From IMG/VR virus record IMGVR_UViG_2049941000_000011: 64,000 nucleotides of DNA. The stretch is one strand, 5' to 3'. Shown one piece after another: positions 1,141 to 52,652 of this stretch (position 1 is the stretch's first letter; each line of letters begins with the position of its first letter). Under the pieces are notes generated by a model, which did no database searches, was not told where the DNA came from, and saw only the letters and a list, made by a program, of their open reading frames with translations. Origin of the DNA: an uncultured virus (IMG/VR IMGVR_UViG_2049941000_000011) (Duplodnaviria; Heunggongvirae; Uroviricota; Caudoviricetes). A program made the position numbers and the translations under genes.

Positions 1141-3537
1141 TTATTCTTCTCCCCCCACTGTAGCTTTCACATATTCATCCGCTAAATCTTTGTTTAGCCA
1201 TGTTTGTTTTTGTCTAATTGCACTAGTTCTAACAGCATGATTAACTGCTTTTGGTTGACAAACAAGAGCACAATATTTTTTAGCTCTAGTTAGTGCTGTA
1301 TAAAGCCATTCTCTGGATAATAAGACATATGCACCGTAATCTAATCCAATGATACAGTAAGGAGCTTGAGAGCCTTGTAATTTATGACAAGTAATTGCAT
1401 AAGCTAAGTTAATGTTCCACCAATCTTCTTTAGATACGATAACATCACCTTGTTCTTCAAAGTTAAGAACCATATAATCTTCTCCGATAGCTTTAATGTG
1501 GCCAATATTTCCATTAAAAATAGCTACTTCTCCGCCGCTAACGCTACGAACATGATAATTATTCTTATTGACAATAATACGGTCGCCAGTTTTGAATGTA
1601 ACAGGGAATTTTGCACCCTTTTCAACCATATCAATAGTCACTGCACTTGGGTCGCACTTGACGTTAACAATTTGTTGAATTTCTTTATTTAAAGCGTAAC
1701 AAGAATTAACACCGTTTGTTCTAACAGGAACAATAATTTGAATATCATCACTAGGAACTTTTTGTTCTATCATTAAGCGTTTATATTCGTCAATGATGCT
1801 TTGGTGAATAAGAGTAGAATCGAAATTAGTAATGATTTTAAAATCTTTTAATTCTCCTCTAACTTCTTCTCCTAAGAAATCATTCTTAACAATAGAAGTT
1901 CCTTCGCAAACATGAATAGATTGAGCAATAATACCAGACTTACGAGCTTGTCTATGAATAATAGAAAGCATACTAGTATGGATATATCCAGATTTAATAC
2001 AGTCGTTTAAGATATTACCAACTGCAAGAGGTGGAAGTTGTTTAACATCTCCCAACATAATTAATTTAGCACCTGTTTTAATTGCTAATAATAATGATAA
2101 GAAGAGTTCTTCTCCAACCATGGATGTTTCATCTAAGATAATAGCATCTGCACAAAGTTGATCACGTTCGTTTTTAGTAAATTGTTCAAGTTCTGCAGAA
2201 TATCCTAATAATCTATGAATTGTTTTGCCTGTTAATTTAGTAATTTCACTTAATAAGCTGGAAGCACGTCCAGAGAAAGCACATTGTTCGACTTTCATAC
2301 CATAGTGTTGGAAAATACGAATAAGAGGTTTTAAAGTAGATGATTTACCTGTACCAGCAGAACCAGTAAGAATAGAAACATTATCTTCTAAAATATTCCA
2401 CATCGCCTTCTTTTGTTCAGATGTGTATTCGTATCCTTGTTCAGTTTCAACATCGGCAATAATTTTTTCGCAAACAGCACGATCGAAGATTCTAGAAGGA
2501 ACGCTTCCTTGTAACCTAACTAATTGAGTGAGAATATCCTTTTCTAATCTTCTTAAATAGAATAAGCCAATTTTTTTATCATCTTTTGAATAGAAGAATA
2601 TTGGTGTTTCTAATTTCTTTTCACCCTTAGTATATTCTTCATAATATTTGTCGAATTCTGTTTGTCCCCATGTAACTTTTTTAATATATGTAGCAGCTGT
2701 AGTTTGATTAATTGGAGCACACATATTAACAACTTCTGCTAAGAAGACATTTACATCTACGCAAGAGTTGCCGTTAAGGTCAGCGTGTTCTTGTAAAAGG
2801 TGTTGCGCATAAGCTAATACTCTGAATTCGCAATCTGGAGCGAAACCACGAGCACGGGCCATTTTATCACATTTCTCCCATCCATAGCCTCTTACTAATC
2901 TAATTAATGAATAAGGATTTTCTTCAATAGTAGAAACAACAATATCGGCTGATCCTAATTGTTCAACAAGTTTATCAATAGCATACTTTGTAAGACCGAG
3001 GTCTTTTAAAGCAATGTAAGCCCTACCGTTGTTTTTATTGTCTTCGTATCTCATACACATACGAGTAGCTGTAACTTGACCGATGCCCTTAATACTAGTT
3101 AAAGCACCGATATTTTTAGACTCAAGAAGTTGAACAGGGTTAGAATCTAATTCAAATAATAAGTCAATTTGACGTTCTGTAAGGAAATAGCTGAAGAATT
3201 TACGTTGGTCGTCTGGAGATGTCATATCATAGTCTAAATGAATAGATAAACATTCATATTGTGGACCATAGCTGCCATCAATAATCAATTTACCAATGAA
3301 TAAATATTCTTCTCCTAAATCTAATTTTGGCATTTTACCTTTTGCCATTAGGTTTATTCTTCCCCAAATATCAGTTTTTTGTAATTCTACTGGAATTTCT
3401 CCTTCTATAACCTTAACAACATCCAAAACGACGATTGCGAAATCGCCGGAATGAACGTTGTGTCTTGGATAGCGATAATTGTGTAAAGTCACTTTTGCGA
3501 CCAATTGTGTTCCGTTAAGTTCTGCGGCAGTTTTCAT
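1141..3537 (-). CDS. recD2: RecD2-like SF1B helicase
   Basis: N-terminal YGPQY, HhH (IKGIG), Walker A GSAGTGKS, DETSM, GDVKQL, AYAITCHKLQGSQ, YTALTRAK. Confidence 0.92.
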   Translation of the reverse strand: MKTAAELNGTQLVAKVTLHNYRYPRHNVHSGDFAIVVLDVVKVIEGEIPVELQKTDIWGRINLMAKGKMPKLDLGEEYLFIGKLIIDGSYGPQYECLSIHLDYDMTSPDDQRKFFSYFLTERQIDLLFELDSNPVQLLESKNIGALTSIKGIGQVTATRMCMRYEDNKNNGRAYIALKDLGLTKYAIDKLVEQLGSADIVVSTIEENPYSLIRLVRGYGWEKCDKMARARGFAPDCEFRVLAYAQHLLQEHADLNGNSCVDVNVFLAEVVNMCAPINQTTAATYIKKVTWGQTEFDKYYEEYTKGEKKLETPIFFYSKDDKKIGLFYLRRLEKDILTQLVRLQGSVPSRIFDRAVCEKIIADVETEQGYEYTSEQKKAMWNILEDNVSILTGSAGTGKSSTLKPLIRIFQHYGMKVEQCAFSGRASSLLSEITKLTGKTIHRLLGYSAELEQFTKNERDQLCADAIILDETSMVGEELFLSLLLAIKTGAKLIMLGDVKQLPPLAVGNILNDCIKSGYIHTSMLSIIHRQARKSGIIAQSIHVCEGTSIVKNDFLGEEVRGELKDFKIITNFDSTLIHQSIIDEYKRLMIEQKVPSDDIQIIVPVRTNGVNSCYALNKEIQQIVNVKCDPSAVTIDMVEKGAKFPVTFKTGDRIIVNKNNYHVRSVSGGEVAIFNGNIGHIKAIGEDYMVLNFEEQGDVIVSKEDWWNINLAYAITCHKLQGSQAPYCIIGLDYGAYVLLSREWLYTALTRAKKYCALVCQPKAVNHAVRTSAIRQKQTWLNKDLADEYVKATVGGEE

Positions 3538-9353: not shown

Positions 9354-9429
9354 TGGTAGATCGTGAGGGATTTGAACCCCCGACCAAACGGTTATGGGCC
9401 GTCTACTCTAACCGCTGAGTTAACGATCT
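9354..9429 (-). tRNA. tRNA with CAT anticodon, most like Ile2 (lysidine type)
   Basis: Cloverleaf AGATCGT/ACGATCT-A-CCA; anticodon arm GACGG-CCCATAA-CCGTT resembles Firmicutes tRNA-Ile2; T-loop TTCAAAT. Confidence 0.88.
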
Positions 9430-9440
9430 ATCATAATAAG

Positions 9441-9525
9441 TGGTGACGGTGGAGGGACTTGAACCCACACATCCGAAGATATATGCTTCTAAGGCATACA
9501 TGACTACCAGTTTCATCACACCGCC
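9441..9525 (-). tRNA. tRNA-Leu(TAG)
   Basis: GGCGGTG/CACCGTC-A-CCA, anticodon arm TATGC-CTTAGAA-GCATA, long variable arm with TTCG loop. Confidence 0.92.
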
Positions 9526-41200: not shown

Positions 41201-44148
41201 GCGACACCTCCGGCGCTAGGTTTTCCATTATAGTGGTCAAATCTACTATATTGTGTACCCATCGTTTCAGATAAATCTTGGAATTGATCAGCATATTTAT
41301 TTGGAATTTGTGCTTTTTTAGCTTCTAGTTGCGCTAACTGTAATTTTTTATACGCTTCCAACGATTTCTCATCGTTTTTCTTAATAGCTTCAATGGTGTC
41401 ATATAATGATCCAGGACCACCGAGATATAAGTCTAAAGTTTTTCTGAGGTCTTTATTATCGTTTTCATATAAGGTCGATAGTAATTCAGTAATGCCTTCA
41501 TTAAATTCAGCACTACCAAATTGAGCATGCCCAATATTTTCAATATTGTTATTAATAGAATCTAATTTTTGCAACATTTTAGCCGCATCTTTAGCCGCTT
41601 TGTTAGCAATATCTCTAGCCTTATCAATACTACCAGCAATTTTTTCACCAATACCGATAATATTATCAAAGAACGATCCAATGCCAAACGGAATAAGGGC
41701 TAAAATAGCCGAGACTGCTCCAGCAGTTTCTTGTGCAGCCTCCGAAGACTCAACTAAACTATCCTCGTATTTGTGAGTAGCGCCAGATGTTTTATAAGCA
41801 ATTAATGCGCTAGAAAGGCTACTTATAATCATAGATACGCCAGCGAGAATAGCAGAGAAGGAGCCCCCTCCTGCAGCAGCAGCAGTCGCACCAGCAGCAT
41901 TTGCACCGCCGGCACCAGCGCCACCTCCTGCAGCAGCTATATTTGCAGCGTTTGCTGCTCCTTGTACATTTGTACCTAATAAATGAGTATTATGTATAAC
42001 ATCCGATATGCCTTGTCCAGCTTTTTGAACTAACGATTTACCCATTAATGCTTTAACATCTTCAACAGCATGAAGAATCATAGGTAACCATTTAACAAAC
42101 CATGGTAAGAGATGTTCTACAACCCAAGTAAGGCCTTTGGTAACATCTGTTAATGTCTTATTAATTTGTGCATTATTTACTAGTTGTTTAATTGCATCAT
42201 CTAAACTTGCTTTCGCTGCTTCATATGATTCTTGATATGATTTATATTTCTTATCGGCTGTACCTGCAGAGTTTTCAGATACTTCAAGATTTCTCTTATA
42301 CTTATCATAGTTTTCCATGAGAGTAAGGAAGGCTTCTTGTTGTCTAGTGCCCGCAAAACTTGTAGAAATAGCTCTTTTTGTAACATTATCTAAATCACTC
42401 CAACGTTCTGCTAATTCATCAATAATGACATCGAAATCTTTAAAGTGTAAATTAGCGTCTCTAATAGAAATACCTAATTTCTTCAAAACTTTTTCAACAT
42501 CATTTAGGTCTTGAGAATTATCCATTGTTTCAGCGTTAACATTTAATTTATTATATGCCCCAGCTTTAACGTTACCGTAACGAGACATAATCATCTTTAA
42601 TGAACTACCAACTGCAGAGCCACTGTTTTGAGTAACTTCAGCGATAGTCGCGACATATGCCGCTGCTTGGTCAAGATTAACACCATTAACATTTGCTAAG
42701 TTTGCAAATTGAGAAAGACCCTCAGCGATTTCACCCGCTGTGACAGCTGCTTGCATATCAATAGCTGTTAATTTATCAACAACCTTAATACTCTCATTTG
42801 AAGCCATCTTAAAGCCTTTTAATGCGCTTGTTAAATCTTGTGTAGCTTTAGTCATATCAATCATACCAAGTTTACTTAATTTAGTAGTTGAAGTAACTAA
42901 TTCCATAACATCGGCTGTATCATAACCTTGTCTATAGAAATCTCTAGCTGCACCTAGAACGTCTTGTGCAGTGGTGCCTAATTCTTTAGATAAATTAATG
43001 AATTGTCCTGTCAATTGTTGAGCAGCAGCTCTAGTTGTTCCTGTAACAATACGGATTTCAGTCATAGATTTATCTAATTCCTTAGCAATCTTAATAGCTT
43101 CGGTGAGACCTTTCCTCAAAATTTGGAAAAATTTCATAATAGCTCCGCCATTTACCATTCTTTCGAACCACCAAACGATACGGCCGTCTAATGAATAATA
43201 TGCGGAAGACCTCTTGGAACCTGCACCAGCTGCGCCTGCAGCGCCTTTAAGAGCTTGAGAATTCTTATAATTATATTGATTCTTTTGTAAAGCTAAATGA
43301 ATTTGATAACGACGCTCCAAATCAGCAGTATCGATACCTTCTGTTTTCTTTAATTTTTCAATCTTCGCTTCGCGACCAGCGATGTTGCCTTTTAATAAAT
43401 CGTTTTGGTCTTTTAAACTTTTAGCGTATTCAAGAGATTCAGCCGTATTTTCTTTTTGTAATTTTTCAATTTGATGTTCGTTATCTAAAATCTTTAATTG
43501 ATCTTGTAAATTTTCGTCAAATTGTTTCCTAACACGACTCATCACGCGTTCGAGTTTTTCTTCTGGAGCAAGTTCGGCTGCTTCTGCAACTTTGTCCTTA
43601 CCCTTCTTACCAGAACCGCCACCTCCAAAAGGTCCAGTGCCCTTTGGATAATTATTTACGTTATTTTCAACATGCTTAATGTTAATATTTTCTGCAGTAA
43701 TCTTCATGTGTTCTACATGTTGAATACCTTTGTGAATAATTTCTTGTTTGTCTGCTGCGCTCATTCTTGATGGTGTTGCAGCTTCTGAGGATGATAGTGC
43801 TGCTTCGACTTTATCTTCTACGACTTCTTTAACGGTTTCTTGAACAGCTTGAATTTCTTTTGTAGAAGGTTTAGTTGCCTTACCGCTACCTCTAGGTCTT
43901 CCTCTTTTTTTTGCAGAAGACACTGGTTCAGAAGCTGAAGAAGACGCCACTGGGGCATCTATAACAGGAGCGGCAGTAGTATCTCCTAGCAGAGATTCGG
44001 CTGAAATTTGCTCATTGCGCTTTTCAAACTCCTCATTTAATCCCACGACGGTGATCTCATTTGGGTCACCTACAGGAACATTAACATTTTGAGAAGATGG
44101 TATATCATCAACCCACGGTCCTTTTAATTGTTTAATTTCTCCGTCATA
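38230..44148 (-). CDS. Tape measure protein (core and C-terminal part); both ends at gaps
   Basis: ELDKSMTEIRIVTG...VVDKLTAID...GSSLKMIMSR...FAGTRQQ TP901-type core, hydrophobic Gly/Ala segment, long coiled coils, VNELGTEAII. Confidence 0.9.
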   Translation of the reverse strand, partial: YDGEIKQLKGPWVDDIPSSQNVNVPVGDPNEITVVGLNEEFEKRNEQISAESLLGDTTAAPVIDAPVASSSASEPVSSAKKRGRPRGSGKATKPSTKEIQAVQETVKEVVEDKVEAALSSSEAATPSRMSAADKQEIIHKGIQHVEHMKITAENINIKHVENNVNNYPKGTGPFGGGGSGKKGKDKVAEAAELAPEEKLERVMSRVRKQFDENLQDQLKILDNEHQIEKLQKENTAESLEYAKSLKDQNDLLKGNIAGREAKIEKLKKTEGIDTADLERRYQIHLALQKNQYNYKNSQALKGAAGAAGAGSKRSSAYYSLDGRIVWWFERMVNGGAIMKFFQILRKGLTEAIKIAKELDKSMTEIRIVTGTTRAAAQQLTGQFINLSKELGTTAQDVLGAARDFYRQGYDTADVMELVTSTTKLSKLGMIDMTKATQDLTSALKGFKMASNESIKVVDKLTAIDMQAAVTAGEIAEGLSQFANLANVNGVNLDQAAAYVATIAEVTQNSGSAVGSSLKMIMSRYGNVKAGAYNKLNVNAETMDNSQDLNDVEKVLKKLGISIRDANLHFKDFDVIIDELAERWSDLDNVTKRAISTSFAGTRQQEAFLTLMENYDKYKRNLEVSENSAGTADKKYKSYQESYEAAKASLDDAIKQLVNNAQINKTLTDVTKGLTWVVEHLLPWFVKWLPMILHAVEDVKALMGKSLVQKAGQGISDVIHNTHLLGTNVQGAANAANIAAAGGGAGAGGANAAGATAAAAGGGSFSAILAGVSMIISSLSSALIAYKTSGATHKYEDSLVESSEAAQETAGAVSAILALIPFGIGSFFDNIIGIGEKIAGSIDKARDIANKAAKDAAKMLQKLDSINNNIENIGHAQFGSAEFNEGITELLSTLYENDNKDLRKTLDLYLGGPGSLYDTIEAIKKNDEKSLEAYKKLQLAQLEAKKAQIPNKYADQFQDLSETMGTQYSRFDHYNGKPSAGGVAADVGVALGGAAVGTGIAVGSMVGTGIALGAGSLAVAGGLSLLGPIGLLLGVGFGIFAAIKMGIAQAEEDEKRHALESEWNRKTTSEQMNAIQDRIEEWQADTENNHAEDIKNAEELLATLKEQNAMISQMMDERNDISLRQGLIDAKYQDQYIQDMSIAQLKNLGNEQILQAIGESAEDHGFDGYTLFDNGKLTDAGYDYLMRQVKNLGDDEISAVLSGQAYTLSEALKLREKLGNTKQVQRILESFAASLGTTVDQLEAVESKYGSLTLADTYLSTTELANEISKYTGLLDSITTGAGNVSAWMNEIINQFPDLIAYMSDIPTLFSKIGTKLKNLSNQYVNAQYTAVSSDETTYSTIKEKFYERIGDSDITKLLDKENITSISAVTDWLKKEYLSNGKLSDRGQKVLDSLKEIVDQFDLSITSSVLKGRYDHIINFRTQVLDQELNNLNEQKEALQDINKQREYENSLIEAKLKLENAMQEKKRVYRAGVGWVYESDQNAIIDAQKNISDLENRKTVSELETQIAELESQKADLSSIYEKQNFELLSKLYDDYIKEAEKDGNFYETAEDLYQSIVAGINGVEEKLSNLIQNSSDTDAAEKTKAVEEARKAWNVLTNSKPGSRSFNTALSNFHTAMQNAKNVGMTEEDTQTWGSSVAMGNGEKVGAWAASNGKESEQRYTPKMVFDLENPHDTSEYYKGTSNMELMTDSSIAAEILEDLKDPHDSYMWLKNGDGKGFYPSDSTVYQAVDSDDTLQDYVDRLYQKGVSEYVILGIGSDYYGDYAVYVKDGKVYKVNGDSGKNNNLSNGDKGKNWRPQFDEVYTPDYTDLADGKYTGDLSFAGGPVMVNELGTEAIITPQGTLTSLPSQTGIIPADITKNLWALGDVAPNLMRMLELHLSNPKFTGVGTSTDESININTINMQVXXXXXXXXXXXXXXXXXXXXXXXXXXXXXXXXXXXXXXXXXXXXXXXXXXXXXXXXKDLFKTYMSYK

Positions 44149-44299
44149 NNNNNNNNNNNNNNNNNNNNNNNNNNNNNNNNNNNNNNNNNNNNNNNNNNNN
44201 NNNNNNNNNNNNNNNNNNNNNNNNNNNNNNNNNNNNNNNNNNNNNNNNNNNNNNNNNNNNNNNNNNNNNNNNNNNNNNNNNNNNNNNNNNNNNNNNNNN

Positions 44300-47200
44300 G
44301 AATTTTTCACGAATTTTTTCTTCAGATTCATGTAAAAATACAGCGAGAGTATATCCCTTAGCGTCACCCTTAGCTGTTGGGCATCTAACATATTCATGTC
44401 TACCAATATTATTTCCACATTCATAAATATAAATTCTACCAGCAAGTTCTCCATCGTCAGCGAGAAATCTAACAGCTGCATAATTCTTATTATCGCTATC
44501 TCCATAAACATAGTATAAACCATCTTTAATTTGAGTTTCACGCCACTTTGCCAAACGTTTTGCCGCCGAGCGATCTTTCTTAGTATCATAACGTGATACA
44601 CGATCATCTATATCAGACAAACCAGCCACAAAATTATCTTGTGCCTCTTTGTTTGCATGCATAGCTGTAACGGTAGAACCTTGTAAAACCAAATTTTCTA
44701 AGGCTCCATCAGACCCCGTCATAGTATCGAGTTTAGCATGTTCGCCGATTTGTTTTTCTATAACATCGATTAACGAATCTTTTCCGCCACTATTAACTTC
44801 AGCATATTGTGCACTGTCTTCACATTGCTTGTAATATGCAGCTAAACTGTGTAAAACATTACGAACACTACCGTCTTCTCCGGCTATTGTTTCCAACCAA
44901 ACAGAATCTGTCGCCTGGCCTCCGAGGTACCATAAAATATAACCCCAGTCATATCCAGCGTCTAAAAGAGCATCAATTTCTTCTCTTAGTCTCATAGTAG
45001 CTGCCATTTGAGTAGATTGTTCAGAAGTTAAATTTGCTTTGACAAATTCAGCTGGGTTAGCTGTTAATTCATCATTATGATCTTTTTGATAATTTTTAAA
45101 TAATTTACCAATAGCTGAAGCATAAATATCTTTAGCATAGTATAAATAAGATAGTTTATGAGCAACTTTTGTAGAATTTAATATTTTATCATCTGGATTA
45201 AANNNNNNNNNNTCTAATAATTCATCTTCTAACAAACTATCTCTACGAGGATCAAATTTAGCATCTTCATCAGCAAGAATTTTAGCTGCGTCTGCAGGCA
45301 TCATTTCCATAATACCCTTATCATTTATACCATAACTCTTGAATACACCATTAACCAAGTGCAACATACTTTGATCTGATGATGCTTTAATAGCTTTATC
45401 TATATCATTAATAGAAGAAAAACCAGCCATTCTAGATTTGATGAATTTACTTTTAGTTTGTTCAGATAATTTTGAAATATCTATATCACTCAAATCATGC
45501 CATGGGTGGTCACCTTTCATCCAATCTTCTTTAGAGCCACCTTGTTTAATAAAATCATAAAAATCACCCCAATATTGTTTTTCTCGAGGTAAAAATGTTT
45601 TATTTAACCAACTGTCTGGTTCAATTAAATTATTATTAATACCATTAATGGCTGATAATGTCATTTGATATTGCTCAGCATTTAATCTGTTCCAGGCTTG
45701 CGGGATTTGCAGATTTTCTTCTAGAATACCGACCATGTGATCATATAGTTTTTGTCTCTTAGCTGGCGATTGTCCTGCAATCATTGACATCCAACCAGAA
45801 AAAGATCTCGCTCCAATATCAATTCCATAGTCTCCTTGAGAAATAGTTCGATCCTTCATTGGATCTGCGTAAGCAGTATATTTATTTTTTAATACATCAA
45901 ACATTTCTTGGATAGGTTTATCATCATCGGATACTTTTCCATCTTTTCCTATAAATGATCTCGTACGAATTTGTCTTTGGAAATACCCCCTGTCATAACC
46001 AGGAACGCTCATGATTAAATCATGTAAAGCTTCAGCACCTCCACCATTTTGAGCAAAATGACGAGCCCATTCGGTTAAACTTTTACCATTAATAGTGCGC
46101 ACTGGTACATTTTTTCCATCTTCAGTTACCCAATTACGAGTACCTAAAGTTGTACCTACTCCACCACGGCCTAATATGCCAACAGCTTTTTTATATAATT
46201 TTTCTTTTTCTTCAGGGGTTTTTGCATTTTGCACTTGAAGAGAAATATCGATACATTCTAAAATCTTTTTTAGACCTAGATCATTAATATCAACTAAACC
46301 AGCAGATTGATCATTATTTCTTGGTAAATGAATAATTTTACCCTTATTGTCTAATTTAATTCCGTTGATTCGAGCTAATAATCTTAACAAATTAATTTGT
46401 AAACCATAATCAGCTCCAATGGATCCAGAACTTTTTAAGTCTGTAATCATAGCACCAAAAATTTGGTCTAATGTTCCAGCAATATTAACTTCGCGTCCAT
46501 TAATATTAATACGAGCTCCTAAAGCCTGCTCTGTAGCAGTTGCATTTTTATTACCAAGGCCCATTGAATCTTTTAGTCGTAAATAATCATTAAGATTTTT
46601 TTCTAATGATGCAATAATTTTTTGTTGAGCTTTATCAGTTCTATCATATATATGACCGTTTTTTCCATAGCTGTATAAAAAACCAGCTGCATCAGCTTGA
46701 TCTTCTGCTCTGGCGCTTTGAGCTAATTTTTTTACAAAGGATTCTACATCTTTATTTTTTACAGTCATTCCCGTGTGAGGTTTACCAAAAACATTAGATT
46801 TTTCGAGTTCTTCTATGGCTCTATGTAATAAAGTACCATAAGCCGTAGCATCAGTATCACCTTGATTTTCTTTTTTATAATATTCTGTAAAATTTTTAGT
46901 AAGTTGTGTAACAGAATAAATCGGATCCTTACCATATTTTTTCTTATCAGAAGCACCTTTCAAAACATATTCATGTTTTCTACGTTGAATACCATTAAGA
47001 ATTTCAATTGATGTATCTAAAGCAACATTTAAAGCTTTGGCTTGAACAATACCATTATTTAAATTCTTACGATATTCTTTAATTTTAGGATTACTTTCTG
47101 TTTTTTTTACCTCTTTAGTTAAAGCCAAGAGTTTATTCATTTTATCTTTAATTTTATTATATTCTGCTTCTTTGTCTAAGCTTTCAAGATNNNNNNNNNN

Positions 47201-47361
47201 NNNNNNNNNNNNNNNNNNNNNNNNNNNNNNNNNNNNNNNNNNNNNNNNNNNNNNNNNNATTGTGAAGGGTTGCTCTTAAACCACTCTGTTATTTCATCAA
47301 GTTGTTTTTGTAATTCAGCAATTTCTTTCATTGATTGCTTATCTTCCATGTTGTTTGCCAT
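44300..47361 (-). CDS. Large protein with a PD-(D/E)XK-like domain; probable N-terminal part of the tape measure protein
   Basis: Starts MANNMED after AGGAGG; open frame runs into gaps on both sides; YSVTQL, YGTLLH, IAGTLD, TDLKSS, YGLQINL motifs. Confidence 0.65.
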
Positions 47362-47380
47362 ATTCAACCCTCCTAAACAT

Positions 47381-47408
47381 AAAAAAGAACTACCCATTCG
47401 GGCAGTTC
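47381..47408 (-). terminator. Intrinsic terminator closing the large ncRNA unit
   Basis: GAACTGCCC-GAAT-GGGTAGTTC followed by T6. Confidence 0.85.
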
Positions 47409-47425
47409 ATAATTTTTAACATAAC

Positions 47426-48042
47426 TGTTCTTTGATAAGTAATTTAACATTGAGACTTTTCTTCATCTTACAACACTTTTATCATGTTTTATTCACACAC
47501 ATTCACGGAGGTCTGAGCGAAAAGGAGCTACCTTTAGGCTTCCTCAATGGGGTAAAACCCGAACAATGGCTAGAATCAAATAGATTGTATTTGTATTCTG
47601 CAACTTTCACCGAACTTCAGAATTTTTTAAGGTTCATCAGTTACTATTACTCATAACTCATGCACAACGTATCATATTTGAGCTGTGTCATACGGCTACT
47701 TGCACACTTACTAACTCTTATACATAACTTACGTTACTTCAAGACACTTCCTTACTTTGAGAACCCAGCTATCAAGTTTCTCAGGCTTGTAACTAATGGT
47801 GAGATGTATTTCTACAGAGCTTCTTGTGGGACGAGCTGTAAGCTTGTTTAAACACCGATAATATGTTGCACTGACATCTCCGCTCGTAAATCGTAGCTTA
47901 CGAGAGAACTCTGATGTTACCTACCAGAGTTTTTTACGTACGACCAGTATCCCAGCCTTATTGCTATTTCATCAAGATGCCATCCCTGCAAGACGTAATC
48001 CTCTTCACAGGGTTCAACTAATAAATTACTTGTCAAAGAACA
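47426..48042 (-). ncRNA. Large structured ncRNA (~575 nt) in a 21-bp terminal stalk; ROOL-like candidate
   Basis: No credible ORF; inverted repeat 47426-47446 / 48022-48042 (20 of 21 match); own promoter and terminator; near tRNAs; size fits ROOL. Family assignment unverified. Confidence 0.7.
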
Positions 48043-48098
48043 ATTTGGTTTTAACAACTTTTCCTTGTTGAATTCTTTTATAGTGAATTACGCTATTT

Positions 48099-48127
48099 AG
48101 TATATATGGTATTTATATTCTTGTCAA
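48099..48127 (-). promoter_or_regulatory. sigmaA-type promoter of the large ncRNA
   Basis: TTGACA-17-TATACT. Confidence 0.8.
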
Positions 48128-48182
48128 ACATTTTTTTTATTTTGTCTCAGATATAAATATTTGACTCAACCTTTTACACTCT

Positions 48183-48494
48183 CTAGAATGGTAAATTGAA
48201 GAATGTTGCAAACAATTCAGAAAGAGTTGGACCCTTCGATGTTGTAACACTTGTTTGTGTGTGATGATAGCTCTTATAATCTTGAATAAAGCTATTAAGA
48301 GCATCTTGATATTTCTTTCTAGCTTCTAAATAAGCAGCTTCTAGAGTTTCAACCTCTTTTGCTCTTTCAGCTCTTTTCTTTTTGAAATCTTCAATTTGAG
48401 CTTGTTTCTCATCATACTTTTTTTCATCTGCTTCTAAATCTTTTTTAGATTCATAGATTTTACCAGTTTTTTCACTTTTAAATAATTCAATCAT
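48183..48494 (-). CDS. Small coiled-coil protein (103 aa)
   Basis: AGGAGG SD before MIELFKSEK; the longer tracked ORF overlaps tRNA-Gln and is over-extended. Confidence 0.75.
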   Translation of the reverse strand: MIELFKSEKTGKIYESKKDLEADEKKYDEKQAQIEDFKKKRAERAKEVETLEAAYLEARKKYQDALNSFIQDYKSYHHTQTSVTTSKGPTLSELFATFFNLPF

Positions 48495-48574
48495 TTTTAA
48501 GTCCTCCTGTTGACTTTGCGAATAAAATCCTATTTTTATTCCGCATAATAACTGTGTATCTGAGACCATACACT

Positions 48575-48649
48575 TGGCAGGGAAAGAAGGGTTCGAACCT
48601 TCGCATCCAAGATTCAAAGTCTCGTGCCTTACCACTTGGCTACTTCCCT
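48575..48649 (-). tRNA. tRNA-Gln(TTG)
   Basis: AGGGAAG/TTTCCCT-G-CCA, anticodon arm CGAGA-CTTTGAA-TCTTG, T-loop TTCGAAC. Confidence 0.92.
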
Positions 48650-48670
48650 ATTTTATCCAATTAACTTCAA

Positions 48671-48696
48671 AGCAGTTTTGCGACTTGCTCGGGTCG
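48671..48696 (-). repeat. H-type pseudoknot motif (related copies at 50111-50136 and, degenerate, 48764-48787)
   Basis: CGAC-CCGAGCAA-GTCG-CAAAAC-TGCT. Confidence 0.6.
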
Positions 48697-49052
48697 GGGA
48701 GTAGAACTATCGTCCATCGTCCTCGTCCTCATCTCAATTAAGCTCCGCATGGACTATGTGAGCAGCAGTTTAACGACATGTCGGTCAACCGATACAATTA
48801 TTTTTAAATCTATATTACTCTATCGGCTAAGTATGAGATTTATATAAACTTTCTTCCTGTTGGTAGAAAGATCACATATTTATGAAAGAGGGTATCTCCT
48901 TTTCTCCAATAAGCAGCCGCAGCTATTTATTGTCCACAAACGCCGTGCACGACGATAGAGATTAGGTGTGGCATCGGCGCCCCTCGCGCCCATTATCCCT
49001 CGTTATTTCGCAAGACACCCCCTGGCCAGAGGATATCAAGTTACTCTCTATT

Positions 49053-49129
49053 TGGTTGGAATGACAGGATTCGGACCTGCGACCTTCTGCTCCCAAAGCA
49101 GACGCGATACCAAGCTACGCTACATTCCA
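49053..49129 (-). tRNA. tRNA-Pro(TGG)
   Basis: TGGAATG/CATTCCA-A-CCA, anticodon arm TCTGC-TTTGGGA-GCAGA; atypical T-loop TCCGAAT. Confidence 0.88.
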
Positions 49130-49193
49130 ATATTTGTGTGGGCTCAACCCCACTTGCAGACCCTTTTGCCTGGAGTTCCCCAGCTTTTCTAAT

Positions 49194-49356
49194 AGTCTAT
49201 ATCTGATGCTCGGGTCATTGGAACGCTGTGTCCTCAAAGATAGGCCCGATGTTTTTTTATTCTTACACATCATTAAACTTTAGTAGTCCACTTACTTAAT
49301 CCTTATCTGGCCAAAAAACGAACCCTAGAATCCTAGGAACCAGCATCAGACTAAAC
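49194..49356 (-). ncRNA. Rod-like hairpin RNA with central bubble (6S-like candidate)
   Basis: Closing helix TCTGATGCT/AGCATCAGA, inner GGCC.GAT/ATC.GGCC helix, unpaired centre. Confidence 0.4.
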
Positions 49357-49372
49357 AACATTCAGTACCAGG

Positions 49373-50150
49373 TGGTGGAACTTATTTGACTCATCCTTTT
49401 ATCAGGGACATTACTGCGGGATCGAGGGTTTACTCTCCTCTTAACATGGAGTCTTCATGGGTTTATAGTTTTCCTTCTGATGGTCTTCTACAATGTCTCT
49501 ATTGCTCTTGCGTGCGGTCTCTACCAGTAGCCCAACGAAGTCTCTTGACAGGAGCTCTCTCTATCCCAATGCAAGTCCAAGGATAGCCGTCAACGCTCGG
49601 CCTAACTCTCTACTTAGTGTAGTTAGACTTTGCCTCTCACGTAAGAACGCGGGTTACCCCGCAGCCGGCAAACACCCCGACTCTCCCTTTTACGTTATGA
49701 GGCCTAGAGACTTACATGCTCTAACATGGGTTTATATGGTTTTCCTTCCACATTAATTTTGGCCCTTTAAGCGTCGGGTCAGAAACGCTCGCATTCGCGA
49801 CACAGGTGTGGACGTATCCTATCCTGCTTTCCTATTGTAAAGAGGAACTTCACAAAAGTTCCCCAGCGAGCCATCGGCTCTAATAATGTAATACAATTTG
49901 TTTTCGTTCGAAGCAGACAAATCATAACTGCTATATTATCTATGAATCCGCAAACGCATAGATACTATCTGTTTAATAAAGCTTTCAGGGGTTATAGCTT
50001 CATATGACTTTAATCTTTAACAGATTCATGTTTTACGAATTTACCCTGCAGCGGCTACTTCAACCCGAAAAGTCCGGTGCATTTAAAGACTCACCAGCGT
50101 CTTTGTCTATGGCAGTTTAACGTCATGCCAGGGACGTGTGTCTAATTTCA
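49373..50150 (-). ncRNA. Structured non-coding transcript region of unknown family
   Basis: Higher GC than flanks, no credible minus-strand ORF, many hairpins and pseudoknots, duplicated motif; downstream of a consensus promoter. Confidence 0.6.
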
Positions 50151-50160
50151 AAGTAATTAT

Positions 50161-50189
50161 ATTATAGACGACAACACTTATAATGTCAA
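50161..50189 (-). promoter_or_regulatory. Consensus sigmaA promoter of the tRNA/ncRNA island
   Basis: TTGACA-17-TATAAT. Confidence 0.88.
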
Positions 50190-50210
50190 TTATTTTTATA
50201 TCTACAATAT

Positions 50211-52652
50211 CTATTTAATAATTGGTGCATAATCATAAGACTGAACAGAAATAGTGGTCCAAGAAAGTGGGGTTGAGGAATTCTCAGTAGTGTAGCCTGC
50301 TAAAGTTAATCCTATGCCACCCGTACCTTGCCACAATTCAATTAACTCAAGAGGGTTAGATTGTTGAAGCAGCGCGGATAATTGTTGAGTAGGAGCACTG
50401 CCAGAGCTAATGTTCATATTGTAAAACTTAATGCTTTTTAGTAAATCAGCATAATTTCTATCAACAGTAATATTAGTAAGAAGGGTATATAAAGAATCAC
50501 TAGATTCTAATAATTGAGTACATGCTTCATCTTTATATAAATGATTTGCTGTTTCATTTTGTGCTTTATTAGGATTGTAAACAGTTGTATTTTTAAAATA
50601 TAAAATCTCTGGCTCAGGTTCTGGCTCTTCTGCCTCTGCCCATTCCACTCTCTTCACAGGAGCCGAAAGAATAGACTGTAAGCCATCAAAGTTTACAGAT
50701 TCACTATCTGTCGTTAGATAAGGATATCCATTTTCGAGATGATTATCTATAATACTTTGATCCCATGTTCCGCCGTCTCGAGTGTCAATTGCTCTTTCAA
50801 AGACATCTCCATCATACCAACCAAACCACCAATCACCATTATCTGCTTTTCTTATATATAAATCCCAACCAGAGCCTTCTCCTCCATATGCTAAGAAACA
50901 GTAATCCCACTCATCTAAATCTGGGAATGCATTGTCTAAGATATTAATAACTTCTGCACGAGTTAAATTGGTATTGATATATAACTTATTATAACTAGTA
51001 TCATGTTGTAGCGGATTACCAACGCCATCATCATATGACACTTCCATTACATACTTTCCTTCGTCAAGATTTTTAGGAGAAGGTGTAGATTCATCGGCCC
51101 AAATTGTTCGTCCACTTTCATCGCAAGTAAGAATTTGTCCAGGTGAACCTGAACCTGGTCCCACTGTGACAATCTCACGGAAATTTTTTCCGTCTGCTGA
51201 TGGAGGTAATATTAATGCACCATCGACTTCTTTAGGAACATACATTAATTGACTTAAAATATTTAATTGTGATTGATTTAAAACATTCTGACCAGTACCT
51301 TCGTTTGGTCTACCATTAATAGGTATACGATTGCCAAATTGTTCTAGATATTCTTCATTCCACTCAAATCGATTGAAAATATCCCCATCAAATAAAACGT
51401 CGCCAGTATTTGGATCTGTTAAATATACTGAGATCTTTGTACTTTCCCAATCCTCTGAGTCCATATAAAAAGTAATTTCAAGTCCTTTGGTGCTATAAAC
51501 AGTATATGTATCATATTGACCCGTTGAATTTAGAATACTCCAAACCTCTTCATATGGTTTAGTAGCATCAAATACTATCTCTTGAGGCCAACGACTGCCA
51601 TCATCAAGAGTAAGGCCATCTAATGGAGCCGGAATAGCTTCTATTTCATTAGAAACTTCTCTATAGAATACATTATAATTAATTTCCGATAAAGGTTGCG
51701 TTGGATCAACACTAATAATAGCTTGCGGTACAACAAATTTAGGATCAATCTTGATAATAGATTCACCCCCTCCAAAAATTGTTGCGTGCTCCATGCACAC
51801 TACACCTTCTATCGCACCATAGTGTTTAGTTTCGGTCATGAATAAACCACGAGACATCCCTGGAATATCATCTTGTGTAATCCCCACTAAAAGCTCACGC
51901 GTACTACCTGTGTGATCTTCTACTTCAATAACATATTCGTTTTCTTCAGTATATATCATTGCGCGAGTAATAGTACCTGTGGCTGGAGCCGCTCCTGGTT
52001 GTAATACTACAGAGTAACGTTTACCAATAAATGCTGATGCTTCACAGTAGTCACCAACTTTTTTAACATGTTCTTCTGTGCCAACTCTTATTTCAGCATC
52101 GACCCAATTACCATCCCAAGAATAGGAATTAAAATTACCTCTTGTACCACGTGGTGGACTGTATTCTAATCTAGCGGTATATTGTAATATATTTACTTCA
52201 TTAATCGCGCCTTCTTTAAGATAGAAAAAATATAAACCAGCCTCAGGAAATATATATCCATTCCATATTGTTCCAGGTGTTAAAATACATATAACCATCG
52301 TACTGCCATAGTATGGAACATAATAATTTACTCCGTCAGTATCTCCGTCACCTTGCCAAGGATATGCCTTGTCATCATTATCATAAAGAGACGCATTACC
52401 AAAATAATCATCTGCATCAATAATTTCTTGAGGTGTTGTTAAAGGAGAATCTCCAACTCTTACCCAGCCGCTTACATAACTATAGACAGGTTCTTCTAGT
52501 GAATCATCATAACTAATAACACCTTCTTCTACAATACCCATGCCGCCAGCTTTAGCAGAGTTAATAATAGTATCTACTTCAGGTGGTATGTCTCCTCCAC
52601 CTCCGCCGGATTTACTCAATGCGAGTAAACGTGCAATAACATCAACTCCCAT
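50211..52652 (-). CDS. Large acidic beta-rich protein, probably virion-associated
   Basis: Short N-terminal helix plus SGGGGG linker, GSPGQILT..GRTIWAD fibre-type motif, two related internal domains. Confidence 0.6.
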   Translation of the reverse strand: MGVDVIARLLALSKSGGGGGDIPPEVDTIINSAKAGGMGIVEEGVISYDDSLEEPVYSYVSGWVRVGDSPLTTPQEIIDADDYFGNASLYDNDDKAYPWQGDGDTDGVNYYVPYYGSTMVICILTPGTIWNGYIFPEAGLYFFYLKEGAINEVNILQYTARLEYSPPRGTRGNFNSYSWDGNWVDAEIRVGTEEHVKKVGDYCEASAFIGKRYSVVLQPGAAPATGTITRAMIYTEENEYVIEVEDHTGSTRELLVGITQDDIPGMSRGLFMTETKHYGAIEGVVCMEHATIFGGGESIIKIDPKFVVPQAIISVDPTQPLSEINYNVFYREVSNEIEAIPAPLDGLTLDDGSRWPQEIVFDATKPYEEVWSILNSTGQYDTYTVYSTKGLEITFYMDSEDWESTKISVYLTDPNTGDVLFDGDIFNRFEWNEEYLEQFGNRIPINGRPNEGTGQNVLNQSQLNILSQLMYVPKEVDGALILPPSADGKNFREIVTVGPGSGSPGQILTCDESGRTIWADESTPSPKNLDEGKYVMEVSYDDGVGNPLQHDTSYNKLYINTNLTRAEVINILDNAFPDLDEWDYCFLAYGGEGSGWDLYIRKADNGDWWFGWYDGDVFERAIDTRDGGTWDQSIIDNHLENGYPYLTTDSESVNFDGLQSILSAPVKRVEWAEAEEPEPEPEILYFKNTTVYNPNKAQNETANHLYKDEACTQLLESSDSLYTLLTNITVDRNYADLLKSIKFYNMNISSGSAPTQQLSALLQQSNPLELIELWQGTGGIGLTLAGYTTENSSTPLSWTTISVQSYDYAPIIK

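Follow-up and report, generated by a model that had tools for sequence, protein, structure and literature searches.

Here we report that at least the core (~49405-49762) of a tRNA-bearing island in a cattle-rumen phage exists as RNA, and that a test on its predicted fold supports selection of this core for base pairing on the minus strand. In our estimate the chances are about even that the island is an uncatalogued phage tRNA-operon RNA, cut by tRNA processing into pieces that carry Shine-Dalgarno (SD)-like protective boxes at their 5' ends. What is new here is an RNA of the phage tRNA-island type and, possibly, the 5'-end box too.

The window, by which we mean the whole 64-kb stretch of DNA analysed, has all of its genes on the minus strand and is fully present as DNA in bovine-gut runs; genes for a tape-measure protein, an integrase and an anaerobic ribonucleotide reductase mark it as a phage. 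The host in which the island operates probably belongs to the Firmicutes. A megablast of 12 kb against GenBank phages returned 0 matches, and the sole match of a blastn search of GenBank phages was tRNA-Pro. The flanking proteins of 813 and 998 aa have no relatives in IMG/VR, and among 5.8 billion proteins their sole match was a 100%-identical fragment.

Layout of the island and the adjacent ROOL unit

The island had originally been predicted as about 1.5 kb with no credible same-strand open reading frame (ORF), lying behind a perfect TTGACA-17-TATAAT promoter and enclosing two tRNAs. This outline holds. The promoter matches at 12/12 positions and ranks first among the 16 promoter-like sites between 46500 and 51000, the stretch behind it extends to about 1.6 kb on the minus strand, and both tRNAs were found, tRNA-Gln lying just beyond position 48650, where the island had been taken to start. 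Read along the minus strand, the order is promoter, ~1.03 kb without an assigned family, tRNA-Pro, 403 nt and tRNA-Gln; the whole window holds four tRNAs. The features of the island and of the DNA downstream of it are as follows, in the direction of transcription.

50161-50189, minus strand: sigma-70 promoter TTGACA-17-TATAAT (12/12), with the transcript start at ~50153
50112-50129, minus strand: leader box A, GGCATGACGTTAAACTGC, ~25-40 nt into the transcript
49887-50104, minus strand: module M1, phage-specific
49690-49886, minus strand: module M2, which holds W-box 1
49725-49748, minus strand: W-box 1, GAAGGAAAACCATATAAACCCATG
49498-49689, minus strand: module M3, the GC-rich folded core
49313-49497, minus strand: module M4, which holds W-box 2 and ends in a terminator-like hairpin
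49456-49477, minus strand: W-box 2
49130-49312, minus strand: 183-nt leader ahead of tRNA-Pro, no Rfam match
49053-49129, minus strand: tRNA-Pro(UGG), CCA encoded (ARAGORN and tRNA model, 64.1 bits)
48650-49052, minus strand: 403-nt spacer, no Rfam match, with leader box B, a CTTAATTGAGA box at 48729-48742 and the degenerate copy C
48765-48782, minus strand: leader box B, ahead of tRNA-Gln
48672-48687, minus strand: leader box C, degenerate
48575-48649, minus strand: tRNA-Gln(UUG), CCA encoded (ARAGORN and tRNA model, 64.9 bits)
48183-48497, minus strand: 104-aa ORF with an AGGAGG ribosome-binding site and no family match, between the island and ROOL
47387-48127, minus strand: ROOL unit, with promoter 48127-48099 (11/12), ROOL 48036-47435 and terminator 47408-47387

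The predicted GC enrichment is present, with values of 0.39-0.52 for the island and 0.29-0.34 for the DNA immediately next to it, the contrast being modest because coding parts elsewhere in the window also reach 0.41. Minus-strand ORFs of the island, two of which overlap tRNA-Pro, do not exceed 52 aa. Nine small ORFs, counted over both strands, gave no Pfam match at E<=0.01, the sole row at E<=1 being DUF4794 (0.17). The longest ORF, of 87 aa, lies on the plus strand at 49493-49756 and coincides with the conserved core. It was considered as a gene and set aside, as comparison with a natural variant (the X17 contig described below) gives 21 non-synonymous and 11 synonymous differences, spread 10:9:13 over the codon positions, and a 1-nt deletion.

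The island also contains a feature that the original prediction had not mentioned, a terminator-like hairpin at 49338-49323 on the minus strand followed by a T-run to 49313. This site could stop most transcripts short of tRNA-Pro.

Searches against known RNA families agreed with the prediction that most of the stretch is unassigned, in that only the tRNAs and ROOL match Rfam 15 at E<=10. The 403-nt part that follows tRNA-Pro has no known domain in the same search, and neither ARAGORN nor the tRNA covariance model (E<=10) finds further tRNA-like matches in the remaining parts of the island. Self-cleavage, also raised at the outset, was not borne out: the ribozyme models of Rfam 15 (hammerhead, twister, pistol, hatchet and HDV-like) gave 0 matches at E<=10. 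The GOLLD model RF02032, with a gathering score of 150 bits, returns no row at E<=10 in 47000-50600 or 48640-49060, and nothing in 48650-50189 matches the ROOL model RF03087; judged by these models, the island is neither GOLLD nor ROOL. Six island segments compared by nhmmer with 62 loci gave nothing below E=0.2, and two exact patterns from the core module M3 are absent from IMG/VR. Because searches of IMG/VR, JGI metagenomes and GenBank phages detected no relatives of modules M1, M3 or M4, one or two natural variants are all that the comparison can draw on.

The adjacent gene described as ROOL-like is a true ROOL RNA (RF03087; 47435-48036, minus strand; 192.7 bits, the cut-off being 99.1), situated 540 nt downstream of the island. 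The idea that the two form one functional system gained no support: a promoter and a terminator of its own set ROOL apart, and the 104-aa ORF lies between the two. A scan of IMG/VR recovered 60 ROOL loci, 35 of which lie within 4 kb of tRNAs, these always on the ROOL strand, and many of the 60 show same-strand gaps without ORFs.

RNA presence, modules and pairing of the core

Four public runs were compared over 46500-51500, namely the metatranscriptomes X5 and X6, size-fractionated RNA (X17) and DNA (X8). The core occurs at 0 differences in the rumen metatranscriptomes of two studies, at 49435-49762 in X5 and 49405-49741 in X6, and so does ROOL, at 47627-47933 (307 nt, X5) and 47463-47986 (524 nt, X6). 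Across the 5 kb compared, the core and ROOL are the only two stretches of >300 nt at 100% identity in both metatranscriptomes. The X5 and X6 bins over 49840-51500 are empty, including the coding DNA from 50211, which argues against carry-over of DNA. Small RNA-run contigs span 49352-49451. The part at 48671-49004 is without cover in all four runs, and 49840-50160 has no cover in X5 or X6 and small depths in X17 and X8, neither of which is evidence of absence.

A single precursor spanning the whole stretch, as first proposed, was not borne out: no RNA contig bridges the core to a tRNA, and the terminator-like site lies at 49338-49313. The companion claim, that cutting at the tRNAs releases small RNAs, stands as plausible, given that homologous pieces are found between tRNAs in another ROOL phage (L066); RNA ends and strand cannot be read from X5, X6, X17 and X8 because all four are assemblies (contigs).

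Comparison with two related contigs indicates, at the level of sequence, that the island is modular and that its relatives swap or lack modules. The first relative is a 954-nt RNA contig of X17, 92% identical, which differs from 49422-49886 at 35 positions and by one gap; the second is a DNA contig of X8. Module M1 appears specific to this phage, as the X17 relative does not resemble the window upstream of 49886, and X8 skips 49690-50104. Module M2 shows three listed differences from X17 in 197 nt. Module M3 is common to the window, X17 and X8, and differs from X17 at ~30 positions, clustered in one hairpin that re-pairs with new sequence; near 49602-49627 the variable M3 hairpin has ~134 extra letters in the X8 contig. 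That contig covers 49498-49689, is then joined to 50105-50137 and is unlike the window downstream of 49498, the joint being weak and possibly spurious because its short side is 33 letters at 80% likeness. Together, the X17 and X8 comparisons suggest that M3 is the shared piece and that its neighbours vary.

The dense hairpins claimed for the island are upheld in part. MFE z-scores reach -2.98 for 49130-50125 and -2.17 for 48650-49052 on the minus strand, but only -1.10 for 49340-49770 on the same strand, and selection for pairing is supported only within 49422-49886. There, the MFE structure of the window (49886-49422, minus strand) was combined with 34 of the 35 X17 differences and set against 1000 random mutants of the same kinds. 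In this test, which rests on one variant and a predicted structure, with the deletion ignored and one difference unlisted, the X17 variant breaks 8 pairs where 15.1 are expected (a result reached by 2 of the 1000 random mutants), and it carries four compensatory, two-sided pair changes where 0.37 are expected, a count that none of the 1000 random mutants attains. Its energy on the window structure is -107.2 kcal/mol against -90.3±7.9 kcal/mol, so that 17 kcal/mol more is kept (16/1000). Clearest among the compensatory changes are C-G to U-A in the hairpin 49682-49677/49668-49663 and G-C to A-U in the hairpin 49662-49658/49653-49649, which has a GUAA loop. Four of the X17 changes are tolerated only as G-U pairs of the minus strand, which names the minus strand as the one that folds.

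The W-box in the window and elsewhere

The W-box is a purine-rich element of the form GAAGGAAAAC-N-TRTAAACC, or GAAGGAAAAC-N0-3-TRTAAACC when relaxed. At up to three mismatches it has two copies in the 64 kb, both in the island, where they flank the core; both are internal to the transcript, with no known 5' end adjoining. The possibility that it is a general phage promoter was dropped, since within the 64-kb window it is found only in the island.

Three IMG/VR records carry the box or box-like copies. In contig G001 (locus L001) a W-box identical at 23/24 positions lies ~13 nt past the -10 hexamer of a 12/12 promoter and heads an RNA of ~190 nt upstream of a tRNA array; the same contig also holds a GOLLD-like RNA (RF02032, 97.1 bits, E ~1e-25 to 1e-27, below the cut-off). 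Locus L066, which has ROOL at 215 bits and 27-30 tRNAs, carries a W-box identical at 21/22 positions that lies 14-16 nt after tRNA-Lys and heads a 223-nt inter-tRNA RNA; its tRNA-Pro is 96.6% identical to that of the window over 58 nt. In L052, a 1.9-kb stretch without ORFs upstream of ROOL contains three box-like copies.

A scan of IMG/VR with the relaxed form gave 84 loci, which reduce to 54 distinct contexts, including the two of the window. A perfect TATAAT ends 12-14 nt upstream of the box in 9 of the 54, where the chance estimate is well under 1, and in 8 of these 9 an SD sequence and an ORF of 80-336 aa follow 13-16 nt later. A same-strand tRNA ends 2-14 nt upstream in 5/54, and a second box lies directly upstream in 3/54. 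These promoter, tRNA and tandem contexts suggest that the W-box tends to open an RNA; 35 of the 54 contexts have no upstream promoter, tRNA or second box, and some of them are perhaps chance matches.

No Rfam family overlies the W-box in 20 loci. The box is also present downstream of the capsid gene in noda-like contigs. A metagenome scan gave 14 loci, none of them near a tRNA, which either fall in a coding region of freshwater phage or match by chance, and a genome scan gave nine, none of them aligned to the window by blastn; the genome locus examined, in a rumen Clostridiales MAG, lies where a GC-rich coding region ends. Among the matches listed in a literature search with the box 10-mer, all are unrelated, most of them eukaryotic or from SARS-CoV-2.

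Two proposals about the W-box were abandoned. A hairpin after the box is not a general part of the element (mean z -0.24, p 0.29), and a tie to ornate RNAs found no support in five further phage records with W-box and tRNAs, several of them incomplete, none of which holds ROOL or GOLLD. The GAAGGA of the box can pair with the anti-SD sequence UCCUUU, as judged by eye against a 16S rRNA tail that may not be that of the host, and SD mimicry leaves the conserved second half of the element (TRTAAACC) unexplained.

Readings of the island beside known RNAs

On the reading we prefer, one consensus sigma-70 promoter would drive an untranslated RNA-plus-tRNA operon, whose transcript would run from a leader box through a lineage-specific module, the core between two W-boxes, a weak terminator, tRNA-Pro and a spacer of ~400 nt that contains the second leader box to tRNA-Gln. 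RNase P and tRNA 3'-end enzymes would cut the read-through transcript into pieces, and the W-box, with its SD-like AAGGA tract and its position elsewhere no more than ~15 nt from a transcript start or a tRNA 3' end, would mark and protect the 5' end of the piece downstream of it, the likeliest guard being a docked 30S subunit, or else a protein, that obstructs 5'-to-3' decay. The product would be a folded RNA, stable and a few hundred nucleotides long. From the place of the core in a tRNA island beside ROOL, its putative role is expected to lie in translation or the tRNA machinery during infection. A bolder version, which we offer only tentatively and consider rather doubtful, takes the W-box to be a widespread, undescribed 5'-terminal element that recruits a host factor (30S or a protein) to phage transcripts, tRNA trailers and non-coding modules; the island would then be a train of box-headed pieces and the core a new class of large phage RNA beside tRNAs and ROOL/GOLLD.

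The same stretches could be ordinary leader and spacer RNA of a tRNA operon, transcribed and to some extent folded but with no role other than to be removed and degraded in the course of tRNA maturation, which we regard as unlikely, though deserving of serious weight. The tRNAs flank the stretches behind one promoter, no conservation evidence or RNA cover in the four runs attaches to 48650-49052, 49130-49340 or 49887-50160, relatives swap or lose modules, and ROOL and GOLLD are missing from all five other W-box/tRNA records. Against this reading, the core, like ROOL alone, has contigs of >300 nt at 100% identity in both metatranscriptomes, and compensatory changes preserve its helices. Moreover, 1 kb ahead of one tRNA far exceeds what processing needs.

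The remaining alternatives have little to recommend them. A highly diverged GOLLD RNA is very improbable: its architecture, as given in PMC12286853, is alike, and the W-box-bearing G001 has a GOLLD-like RNA, yet RF02032 reaches 97.1 bits on G001 and is silent here at E<=10, and the conserved part of the island lies 5' of the tRNA, not 3'. Equally hard to credit is the decay of a larger tRNA array into pseudo-tRNAs. Related ROOL phages do have 27-30 tRNAs in such islands against four in the window, but neither ARAGORN nor the tRNA model finds a partial tRNA at E<=10, and the helices with compensatory changes are not tRNA-like. Finally, it seems most unlikely that the stretch codes for small proteins or regulatory mini-ORFs with the W-box as their ribosome-binding site and an ATG 14-16 nt on. 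An ATG does follow the box in W-box 1, W-box 2 and L001, and eight other phages have a genuine SD with an ORF 13-16 nt past the box; the mini-ORFs here, however, have 7, 5 and 2 codons and unrelated peptides, the L066 box has no following ATG, and GGA and ATG lie too far apart for an SD site. The natural variant also shows no codon-position bias and a frameshifting deletion, and there is no Pfam match.

The giant RNAs ROOL and GOLLD occur in phage tRNA islands, and we know of no function for either to date. GOLLD is about 800 nt long, with a conserved 3' domain and a variable 5' region, and the trait of the GOLLD/ROOL class is an RNA-only homo-oligomeric nanocage; the island was compared with this class by covariance model and setting. 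GOLLD resembles the island as a large structured phage or prophage RNA near tRNAs, variable in its 5' part and conserved in another, whereas the sequence and supported helices of the island are unrelated to it and its conserved part lies upstream of the tRNA. PMC12286853 describes GOLLD near phage tRNA islands, with a less conserved 5' region and tRNAs at times in the linker; set beside this account and PMC5737381, the island is like GOLLD and ROOL in setting and in its division into variable and conserved parts. ROOL shares the genomic setting, and L066 and L052 carry both ROOL and boxes; the island, in contrast, fails the ROOL model, and ROOL here is a separate transcription unit. The locus adds a third, unrelated, modular RNA beside a ROOL gene, with evidence of presence as RNA and of selection on structure.

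A further comparison is with phage T4, whose tRNA operon yields species 1 and 2, small stable RNAs of ~120-140 nt that are co-transcribed with the tRNAs and freed by tRNA processing. Compared by description only, they resemble the island in the co-transcription of stable RNA and tRNAs; they differ in being shorter and in belonging to a phage of Gram-negative bacteria. For the W-box alone, an analogy may be drawn with STAB-SD and the SP82 polypurine element, 5' mRNA stabilisers of Bacillus that protect against 5'-to-3' decay in Firmicutes; an element of the STAB-SD type prolongs the half-life of the RNA downstream of it in a way that depends on 30S binding and RNase J1. Like them, the box would be a purine-rich, SD-like tract near an RNA 5' end that serves no start codon, whereas its SD core is weaker (AAGGA) and it has an additional conserved half, TRTAAACC. 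Should the W-box prove to be a stabiliser or a ribosome dock, it would explain how long untranslated phage RNAs survive in Firmicutes, and it would serve as a handle for finding further such RNAs.

The leader box, for its part, may have the role that rrn boxA plays in leader and spacer, by analogy of position. It resembles boxA/nut antitermination elements, of which boxA is bound by NusB:S10, in being a short tract, conserved and single-stranded, that lies ~25-40 nt into the transcript, and it is repeated in the spacer after a tRNA much as boxA stands before both 16S and 23S. The boxA consensus is given as UGCUCUUUAACA for E. coli and AUGAUCUUUGAAA for B. subtilis in PMC13753749. The resemblance in sequence is weak, UCGUUAAAC against UCUUUAAC differing by one substitution and one insertion when compared by eye. 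A consensus fold for the leader box was tried and set aside as weak (-3.17 kcal/mol). The stretch 50105-50137 around leader box A recurs in the related X8 DNA contig, and 48763-48787, around leader box B, is identical to L066 at 23 of 25 positions. In L066 the leader box directly follows that unit's own promoter and heads a 640-nt RNA without ORFs.

boxA-like tracts at ROOL and at the island start

Two short tracts resembling boxA, the rrn antitermination element, lie in the window, one at the large phage RNA ROOL and the other at the non-coding RNA and tRNA island.

48033-48050: boxA-like tract YTCTTTRAMA, here GTTCTTTGACAA, at the 5' edge of ROOL
50146-50153 (-): CTTTGAAA, where the island transcript starts (about +1)

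The tract at ROOL falls within the 29-nt extended closing stem of that RNA (arms 47418-47446 and 48022-48050), and the same pattern was found at 5 of 57 distinct ROOL loci (the window and the IMG/VR loci L066, L057, L076 and L036), against 0.005 expected per 220 nt. At the island start, CTTTGAAA corresponds to the 3' portion of the boxA consensus that PMC13753749 gives for B. subtilis; it has four minus-strand matches across the 64-kb window, that at 50146-50153 being one of them.

Non-coding units in other phages

Among the ROOL loci, L052 carries 27 tRNAs and a stretch free of same-strand ORFs, which lies behind a promoter and contains three W-box-like copies, as well as a hairpin at its 5' side followed by UGCUUAUUAAUA. 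The phage of IMG/VR record G001, which shares the W-box and has about 24 tRNAs, encodes a GOLLD-like RNA with an 11/12 promoter upstream; the full length of the model is covered, yet the score of 97.1 bits is below the 150-bit cut-off. Similar AAGGAA leaders open three non-coding units of this phage.

L052, oriented coordinates 1247-3147: 1.9-kb same-strand ORF-free stretch, upstream of ROOL
L018 (G001), 1474-1911 (-): GOLLD-like RNA, 97.1 bits

Other features of the window

9354-9525 (-): second tRNA pair, tRNA-Met(CAU) and tRNA-Leu(UAG)
48183-48497 (-): 104-aa ORF, between tRNA-Gln and ROOL

The second tRNA pair is distant from the island. For the 104-aa ORF, only weak, sub-threshold family matches were obtained, mostly to coiled-coil families, and a search for a PHROG match found none. 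At 44000-44607, where GC falls to 0.17-0.19, the listed coordinates give a 464-nt overlap between a 2125-aa tape-measure ORF and a 998-aa ORF; the downstream gene probably starts later than listed.

W-box settings in prophages and RNA-virus-type contigs

In Oenococcus oeni prophages (L093 and ~25 similar loci; GenBank MH220877.1, 38629-38687), the W-box occupies a short gap immediately 5' of small genes that precede an HNH endonuclease, with an ArpU-family regulator upstream, a position close to the expected start of the late transcript.

The W-box is common to Firmicutes phages and contigs of RNA-virus type. Tandem W-boxes, in two or three copies, stand directly 3' of the capsid-gene stop codon in L096, L115, L130, L145, L151 and similar short IMG/VR contigs (1.5-5.7 kb); ORF 207-1451 of L145 scores 247 bits against Peptidase_A6, a nodavirus coat family.
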